Below are positions 13,845 to 14,011 of a stretch of 64,000 nt of DNA, piece by piece (position 1 is the stretch's first letter; the number at the start of each line of letters is the position of its first letter). The DNA is from Escherichia coli (GTDB taxonomy: Bacteria; Pseudomonadota; Gammaproteobacteria; Enterobacterales; Enterobacteriaceae): assembly GCF_009931435.1 (NCBI RefSeq), contig NZ_CP043414.1, one strand, 5' to 3'. Position numbers and translations under genes: made by a program. The notes under the pieces are model-generated. The model searched no databases and was not told the origin of the DNA. It saw only the letters and a program-made list of their open reading frames with translations.

Positions 13845-14011
13845 TTTTTCTATTCATCATCTTGCCGTGCTGCTGGCACGGCAAGACAACCGCTCTCATA
13901 AGATGTGCATTGAACGCTCATTCCTCCGCCATTTCATCCCGCTTTCCTGTGGTAATCTTCCTCTGAACCACCTACGATCATTTCTATAATGAATATATTG
14001 TTGAGGTATCT

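Follow-up and report, generated by a model that had tools for sequence, protein, structure and literature searches.

We found that the purC transcript of Escherichia coli has a sharp steady-state 3' end directly behind a conserved hairpin that is not followed by a U-tract. The hairpin lies in the spacer between purC and ypfJ, within the 64-kb stretch of E. coli DNA that was analysed here as a whole (the window, to which all positions refer unless K-12 is named). It marks the end of about two thirds of the purC transcripts of strain K-12 grown in M9, and about a fifth of the purC transcripts run through ypfJ. There is direct support for the hairpin's structure and conservation, for the mapped 3' end and for the read-through. 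Our reading of these data, which we hold with slightly better than even confidence, is that the hairpin is a sense-strand RNA element defining and protecting the 3' end of the purC mRNA, with transcription being terminated by Rho further downstream and the transcript then being trimmed back. The features on which the analysis draws are collected in Table 1.

Table 1. Features of the purC-ypfJ region in window coordinates.
Feature	Position	Strand	Details and basis
purC CDS (SAICAR synthase)	13131..13844	+	Stop codon TGA at 13842-13844; ORF list and RefSeq annotation of a 100%-identical E. coli locus
Linker from purC stop to hairpin	13845..13859	+	15 nt, U-rich, TTTTTCTATTCATCA; sequence; alleles vary at 13852, 13853 and 13855
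Variable 70-bp segment with the hairpin	13851..13920	.	Single copy, in 3805 of 5426 complete E. coli genomes
Hairpin 5' arm	13860..13870	+	TCTTGCCGTGC; unchanged in 8 divergent E. coli alleles
Hairpin loop	13871..13875	+	TGCTG in the window, AGCTG in K-12; polymorphic
Hairpin 3' arm	13876..13886	+	GCACGGCAAGA; sequence, fold and allele alignment
Published steady-state 3' end of purC primary transcripts	13887..13888	+	K-12 2596861 if the listed coordinate is 1-based, 2596862 if it is 0-based
Untranslated spacer rich in C and poor in G, candidate rut (Rho loading) region	13887..13964	+	Base composition; rut function putative
ypfJ promoter region	13948..13990	+	TSSs at 13965 and 13986; candidate -10 elements TGTGGTAAT (13948-13956) and TACGAT (13973-13978)
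ypfJ CDS (KPN_02809-family zinc metallopeptidase)	14012..14875	+	ATG at 14012; ORF list and RefSeq annotation

The spacer between the two genes is 167 nt long, and the hairpin begins 16 nt past the purC stop codon. At 13860-13886 it reads TCTTGCCGTGC-tgctg-GCACGGCAAGA, a palindrome of 27 bp. A preliminary description of the site had claimed a perfect 10-bp stem, which the sequence confirmed at 13861-13870 and 13876-13885; an additional pair between T13860 and A13886 extends it to a perfect 11-bp stem (13860-13870 with 13876-13886) closed by a 5-nt loop. The stem-loop is GC-rich, with 7 G-C pairs among the 11, and its dimensions are those of canonical intrinsic terminators (stems of about 5-14 bp, short loops). 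Folded in isolation the hairpin reached -20.0 kcal/mol, and in a 91-nt context the z-score of the fold was -2.5 on the + strand and -3.8 on the - strand. The hairpin is more than a product of chance, because the window holds 4 perfect hairpins whose stems reach 11 bp or more around loops of 3 to 8 nt, where a first-order Markov model predicted 0.09 per 64 kb. Four further perfect hairpins, with stems of 10 to 14 bp, were noted elsewhere in the window (19991-20022, 34705-34732, 48778-48803, and 56198-56231). At 19991-20022 the hairpin is flanked by an A run and a T run, as a bidirectional terminator would be, and is similar to a Term-seq end recorded as acrD antisense; the one at 34705-34732 consists of a 12-bp stem followed by GTTTTAC.

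Small ORFs of 61 and 34 amino acids, plus an antisense ORF of 80 amino acids, extend over the hairpin site. A conserved stem between varying flanks, the pattern described below, would fit an RNA structure better than a coding constraint. A search with the Rfam 15 covariance models of positions 12800-14200 on both strands (E ≤ 10) produced no match at 13860-13886. The only other matches in this interval were a chance-level one to suhB and a partial one to naRNA4 at 13034-13069 (31.6 bits, with a gathering score of 59.5; E = 0.002), the latter falling on a REP-like element located between bamC and purC.

Canonical intrinsic termination requires a weak rU:dA hybrid behind the hairpin, and intrinsic release in E. 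coli needs a U-tract, which in canonical terminators starts 0 to 2 nt past the stem. Of the 8 nt 3' of the purC stem (CAACCGCT) one is T, and of the first 12 nt two are; the RNA:DNA hybrid over the first 8 nt past the stem would be GC-rich (CAACCGCU). Spontaneous release of the transcript at this hairpin is therefore unlikely. A terminator pattern scan requiring at least 5 T in 8 nt did not call the purC hairpin and did call the bamC terminator. Since the U-tract proved to be absent, the hairpin is not a canonical intrinsic terminator, just as the preliminary description had maintained. On the - strand the stem is followed by UGAUGAAUAGAAAAA, again with no T-run, and a terminator acting on that strand was ruled out on this ground, together with the co-directional orientation of the neighbouring genes and with G.U pairs that fit the + strand only. 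The elemental pause consensus G(-10)Y(-1)G(+1) was not found by eye within 25 nt 3' of the stem. The bamC gene, 900 bp upstream of the purC hairpin, has a canonical intrinsic terminator at 12925-12952, in which a 9-bp stem (12925-12946) is followed by TTTTTT. This terminator coincides with an Adams 2021 Term-seq end (K-12 2597798/9) and with a SMRT-Cappable-seq TTS, at which condition-dependent read-through into purC occurs.

The window aligns without gaps to K-12 MG1655 over the spacer, window position x being K-12 2596905 - (x - 13844) on the minus strand, and the hairpin corresponds to K-12 2596889-2596863. In the SMRT-Cappable-seq data of K-12 grown in M9 (Yan et al. 2018, PMC6131387; Supplementary Data 1, sheet M9_TTS), a purC TTS is listed in a row for 2596861-2597781, reverse, annotated as 'novelTTS' and b2476. 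K-12 2596861 is window position 13888 (13887 if the coordinate is 0-based), which is 1 to 2 nt past the stem. Since C13887 is followed by AA and a poly(A) tail is added in the method, we take the true purC 3' end as uncertain over 13887-13889. Among the 88 reads that start at the purC TSS, 58 end at this TTS, 8 end within the 50 bp downstream of it, and 19 pass through, with a median read-through beyond the TTS of 1077 nt (PMC6131387). The dominant steady-state 3' end of purC (58/88 reads) thus lies directly 3' of a stable stem-loop. This bears out the 3'-end role that had been proposed for the hairpin, and the check for 3' ends near 13885 that came with the proposal finds one at 13887-13888 in this dataset. 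The accompanying idea of a boundary between purC and ypfJ holds in part: it describes the 58 reads that end at the hairpin but not the 19 that continue through ypfJ. In agreement with the two fates, the same study lists a purC-only and a purC-ypfJ transcript from the purC promoter, and it also mentions a dapA-ypfJ transcript (PMC6131387).

The purC TTS is present only in the M9 sheet of the SMRT-Cappable-seq data, which is consistent with repression in rich medium. The curated Term-seq 3' ends of Adams 2021 (LB at two densities, and M63) include no purC end. Primary ends for purB, purF, and purN are present in that set, which is without ends for purD, purL, and purK and represents purA only by an ORF-internal end; because several other pur genes are thus without ends too, its silence on purC is weak evidence. 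We searched the literature on purC in combination with ypfJ, Rho, or ProQ and found nothing specific. The purC 3' end has been on record since 2018 as a 'novelTTS' coordinate, but it has gone undiscussed.

The region 13700-14100 was matched in 5425 of 5426 complete E. coli genomes and is 100% identical in strain RMDEC465. In the genomes that carry the 70-bp segment, the copies are 91% to 100% identical to that of the window. Eight alleles chosen across this range were compared in a 190-nt alignment that contained 14 variable sites, 12 of them inside the segment. None of these 12 fell in the 22 stem positions (P = 0.0065); between 13921 and the start of ypfJ, a stretch of 91 nt, only 2 sites varied. 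The stretch just 3' of the hairpin (13892-13908) has 8 variable sites in 17 nt, arranged in few distinct haplotypes, and the next ~100 nt are nearly invariant. When exact 30-mers were counted, the version with T at loop position 13871 was found in 1653 genomes and the version with A, as in K-12, in 2068; these two majority 30-mers differ solely at that position and together account for 3721 of the 3805 carriers. A class of 80 genomes, of which one was sampled, has a second loop change (TGCTG to TACTG), and a class of 4 genomes, again with one sampled, has the loop-closing G13876 replaced by A, the sole stem variant among those sampled; the outer 10 bp are intact in both. The absence of variable sites from the stem, and the two 30-mers that differ in the loop alone and cover 3721 of the 3805 genomes, indicate that the stem is under selection. 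The hairpin of E. albertii is the same but for C13870, which is T there and pairs as a U.G wobble on the + (purC sense) strand; the opposite strand would have an A.C mismatch at this pair.

A vapBC cassette of ~820 bp, coding for VapB and VapC (positions 3171-3990 of the extracted locus L001), takes the place of the 70-bp segment in 1611 of the 5426 genomes (30%), and the two alleles together account for 5416 of the 5426 genomes. The vapBC allele is without the palindrome of the window and keeps the ypfJ promoter region. It contains a hairpin of its own, located 29 nt past the purC stop, with 11 bp (UUUAGCCGGAG-GGUA-CUCCGGCUAAA) and an energy of -18.6 kcal/mol when folded alone; RNAfold pairs 10 of the 11 bp. 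Over its first ~75 nt this allele shares homology with the spacer between purC and ypfJ in Pseudescherichia vulneris and in 'Escherichia sp. ESNIH1', and the 5' arm TTAGCCGGAGG is identical in the vapBC allele and the Pseudescherichia-type spacer. The allele therefore looks like a whole spacer imported from another lineage, into which vapBC was inserted just upstream of the ypfJ promoter. Such a whole-spacer replacement implies that the hairpin is apparently no insertion target, and we rejected the idea that it serves as one for vapBC. Judged from the predicted folds, a strong hairpin right after purC is kept in both E. coli alleles.

The same position is occupied by hairpins in other genera. 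Taking the best single hairpin within 90 nt past the purC stop in 79 loci from other Gammaproteobacteria, mostly Enterobacterales, we obtained a median of -17.5 kcal/mol vs -9.6 kcal/mol in shuffles (P = 2e-27), and -15 kcal/mol or lower was reached by 78% of the loci vs 11% of the shuffles. The hairpin sequences are unrelated between most genera. A T-run follows the hairpin in Pluralibacter, Cedecea, a Klebsiella sp., and Siccibacter, and none follows it in Enterobacter, Citrobacter, Pseudocitrobacter, Leclercia, Kluyvera, and Escherichia. One hairpin type, non-homologous to that of the window, is common to 13 genomes (Enterobacter, Leclercia, Pluralibacter, Pseudocitrobacter, and relatives); of its 10 pairs, 6 show compensatory double changes, and where it has wobbles these are G.U on the sense (+) strand. 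The comparison thus indicates that the position after purC is conserved while the sequence of the hairpin turns over. Since the sequences are unrelated, the pairs change in a compensatory manner, and the wobbles, including the U.G pair of E. albertii, form on the + strand, selection acts at the RNA level on the sense strand, for a structure at the 3' end of the purC mRNA and not for a DNA sequence.

Two other features of this spacer were noted in the same set of loci. A near-palindrome like a LacI-family/PurR operator, ACGCAATCG(T/A)TTACGT, stands directly past the purC stop in many Enterobacterales, within the first ~20 nt (Cedecea, Pectobacterium, Brenneria, Yersinia, Photorhabdus, Budvicia, Proteus, Shimwellia, and Pantoea; loci L030, L031, L036, L043, L046, L056, L058, L064, and others); it is absent from the E. 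coli window. Expanded purC-ypfJ spacers were found in L039 (2715-4315), L056 (2715-3477), L058, L031, L045, and L052. That of Siccibacter holds a 1.6-kb insert with ORFs of 311 and 144 amino acids and that of Budvicia an ORF of 160 amino acids on the opposite strand, and the spacer seems to be a recurrent site of small gene insertions.

Downstream of the hairpin, the 78 nt from 13887 to 13964 contain 27 C vs 11 G (C/G 2.45) and 19 YC dimers, and the excess of C over G in this stretch is in the 99th percentile of all 78-nt windows taken from both strands of the window. By its composition the stretch resembles a Rho loading site and is a candidate rut region. The conserved ypfJ promoter extends into the same stretch, so that the base composition there may be due to something else, and in other genera the C>G bias is weaker (median C/G 1.25). 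By established PurR regulation, purC is expected to be repressed in rich medium. The bicyclomycin-sensitive regions of Adams 2021 (Supplementary file 2), which were determined in LB and thus under expected repression of purC, include none at the purC locus. By analogy with known cases, termination probably takes place downstream of the hairpin and is Rho-dependent, Rho being the presumed terminating factor. The known model assigns to the hairpin the role of exonuclease barrier and not that of Rho signal; the rut site is located downstream of it.

The ypfJ TSSs of K-12, 2596784 and 2596763 (Supplementary Data 2, PMC6131387), correspond to the window positions 13965 and 13986. The -10 elements given for them in Table 1 are candidates from our own reading of the sequence. 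The part of the promoter region running from TATGGTAATC to CCTACGATC (TATGGTAATC...CCTACGATC) is conserved across Enterobacteriaceae. Conservation across genera of this family was also observed for 13938-13990 upstream of ypfJ (TTCCTGTGGTAATC...CCACCTACGATCATTTCTATAAT), an interval in which a simple sigma-70 scan called no promoter.

Taken together, we propose that RNA polymerase transcribes beyond the hairpin, which it would do because there is no U-tract for release. The ribosome would leave at the purC stop, and ~100 nt of untranslated, C-rich, and G-poor transcript would follow, on which Rho most likely loads, ending most transcripts at scattered positions downstream. PNPase and RNase II would then trim these transcripts in the 3'-to-5' direction to the foot of the 11-bp stem and stall there, and this stalled trimming would produce the sharp 3' end 1 to 3 nt past the stem. 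Roughly a fifth to a quarter of the transcripts escape and extend through ypfJ, for which separate promoters also lie 3' of the hairpin.

The sharpness of the end, with 58 reads at one site vs 8 in the next 50 bp, would equally be expected if the strong stem-loop directly released polymerase at 13887-13889 without a U-tract, perhaps with the help of NusA or NusG, and we regard such non-canonical termination as unlikely. The single U in the 8 nt past the stem and the GC-rich hybrid speak against it. Intrinsic release usually takes place 7 to 9 nt past the stem, and the purC end, only 1 to 3 nt past it, is closer than that and suits trimming better. The homologous or positional hairpins with a true T-run in Pluralibacter, Cedecea, Klebsiella sp., and Siccibacter fit direct release, which would take the site to descend from, or alternate with, true intrinsic terminators, and the same holds for the fact that Adams 2021 called no Rho region at the purC locus. 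The authors of the SMRT-Cappable-seq study also hold that their 3' ends are mostly original termination sites, transcripts with a 5' triphosphate mostly keeping their original 3' ends (PMC6131387). However, this argument from the 5' end does not exclude trimming, because exonuclease trimming is independent of the 5' end state. That the hairpin is a true U-tract-independent terminator, at which release occurs within a few nt despite the GC-rich hybrid and perhaps with the assistance of a factor, appears very doubtful to us; were it so, the purC hairpins of the Enterobacteriaceae would constitute a natural series of U-tract loss with function kept.

The existence of read-through transcripts over ypfJ also agrees with the hairpin being a processing barrier only. 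There would then be little or no termination between purC and ypfJ, and purC-ypfJ(-tmcA) co-transcripts would be cut within the spacer or within ypfJ, for example by RNase E, with the hairpin stopping the 3' exonucleases and leaving a stable purC segment, in the manner of the malE-malF REP stabilisers. The stability of the hairpin matches that of known exonuclease barriers, and the spacer is at its most polymorphic just downstream, in 13892-13908, which is what a discarded tail would show. However, the 58 reads that end at the hairpin carry a 5' triphosphate, which according to the SMRT-Cappable-seq authors makes transcripts resistant to RNase E (PMC6131387), and only ~22% of the reads extend, a proportion that suits termination better although processing could still take part; processing as the sole cause is thus distinctly unlikely. 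An action at the DNA level, with the 27-bp palindrome being a protein-binding site, for instance for a regulator of ypfJ, or a recombination or insertion target tied to the vapBC replacement, is highly improbable. The palindrome is indeed a perfect inverted repeat upstream (~90-110 bp) of the ypfJ TSSs at 13965 and 13986, and it is part of the segment whose place the vapBC cassette takes in the other allele. Against this, other genera keep a hairpin of unrelated sequence with compensatory changes and strand-specific G.U pairs, and the vapBC allele has retained the ypfJ promoter region yet not the palindrome. Moreover, the palindrome occurs once per genome and so belongs to no repeat family, and the homology between the left part of the vapBC allele and the spacer of another lineage points to recombination in the flanks and not to an insertion targeted at the hairpin.

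On our preferred reading, a 3'-end-defining and protecting RNA element, the hairpin would set the 3' limit of the E. coli purC transcription unit and would explain why purC and ypfJ are merely partially co-transcribed. The class of U-less stem-loops at mRNA 3' ends would gain one well-conserved member, with little importance beyond annotation. The comparative purC series, in which unrelated hairpins with or without a T-run occupy the same position after purC and two E. coli alleles each have their own hairpin, may be modestly useful for studying the evolutionary turnover of terminators and 3'-end stabilisers. The presence or absence of vapBC between purC and ypfJ could also serve as a handy strain marker.

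Among known systems, the purC hairpin shares with the canonical intrinsic terminator of bamC a GC-rich hairpin soon after the stop codon, a stem length and energy in the terminator range, and a mapped transcript end. It differs from it in having 1 T in the 8 nt past the stem instead of 6 consecutive T, and from intrinsic terminators in that its transcript end is located 1 to 3 nt past the stem and not inside a U-tract. REP stabilisers of the type present in malE-malF are a barrier to 3' exonucleases. With these REP/BIME elements the purC hairpin has in common that it is a stable extragenic palindrome without a U-tract, able to block 3' exonucleases, and that read-through transcripts exist; it differs in occurring in one copy per genome, in having no REP similarity, and in having no Rfam match. 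Membership in a REP or other repeat family was rejected, the 70-bp segment and the 30-nt hairpin being single copy in each of the 3805 genomes. The primary 3' ends of purF (...GAGGGTGCCGGTCTGGCACCCTGACTTGC...) and purB in Adams 2021 (Supplementary file 1) are similarly formed at hairpins without a proper U-tract, but these ends passed Term-seq curation, whereas the purC end is known only from SMRT-Cappable-seq. The closest likeness is to the 3' ends described by Dar & Sorek 2018 (PMC6061677), which are made by PNPase/RNase II trimming after diffuse termination downstream, with an excess of C over G in the sequence following the stem-loops at which Rho-dependent transcripts end. As in that class, the purC 3' end is sharp, is directly preceded by a stable stem-loop and belongs to an intergenic 3' UTR; the stem-loop has neither an A-tract before it (the purC linker is U-rich) nor a U-rich tail behind it, and C exceeds G downstream. 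The class was defined experimentally, by bicyclomycin read-through (>30%) and pnp/rnb-dependent trimming, and purC is likened to it by structure, 3' end, and composition; by this analogy we lean, on a narrow balance, towards the purC hairpin being a further example of the U-less protective 3' stem-loops of Dar & Sorek 2018.
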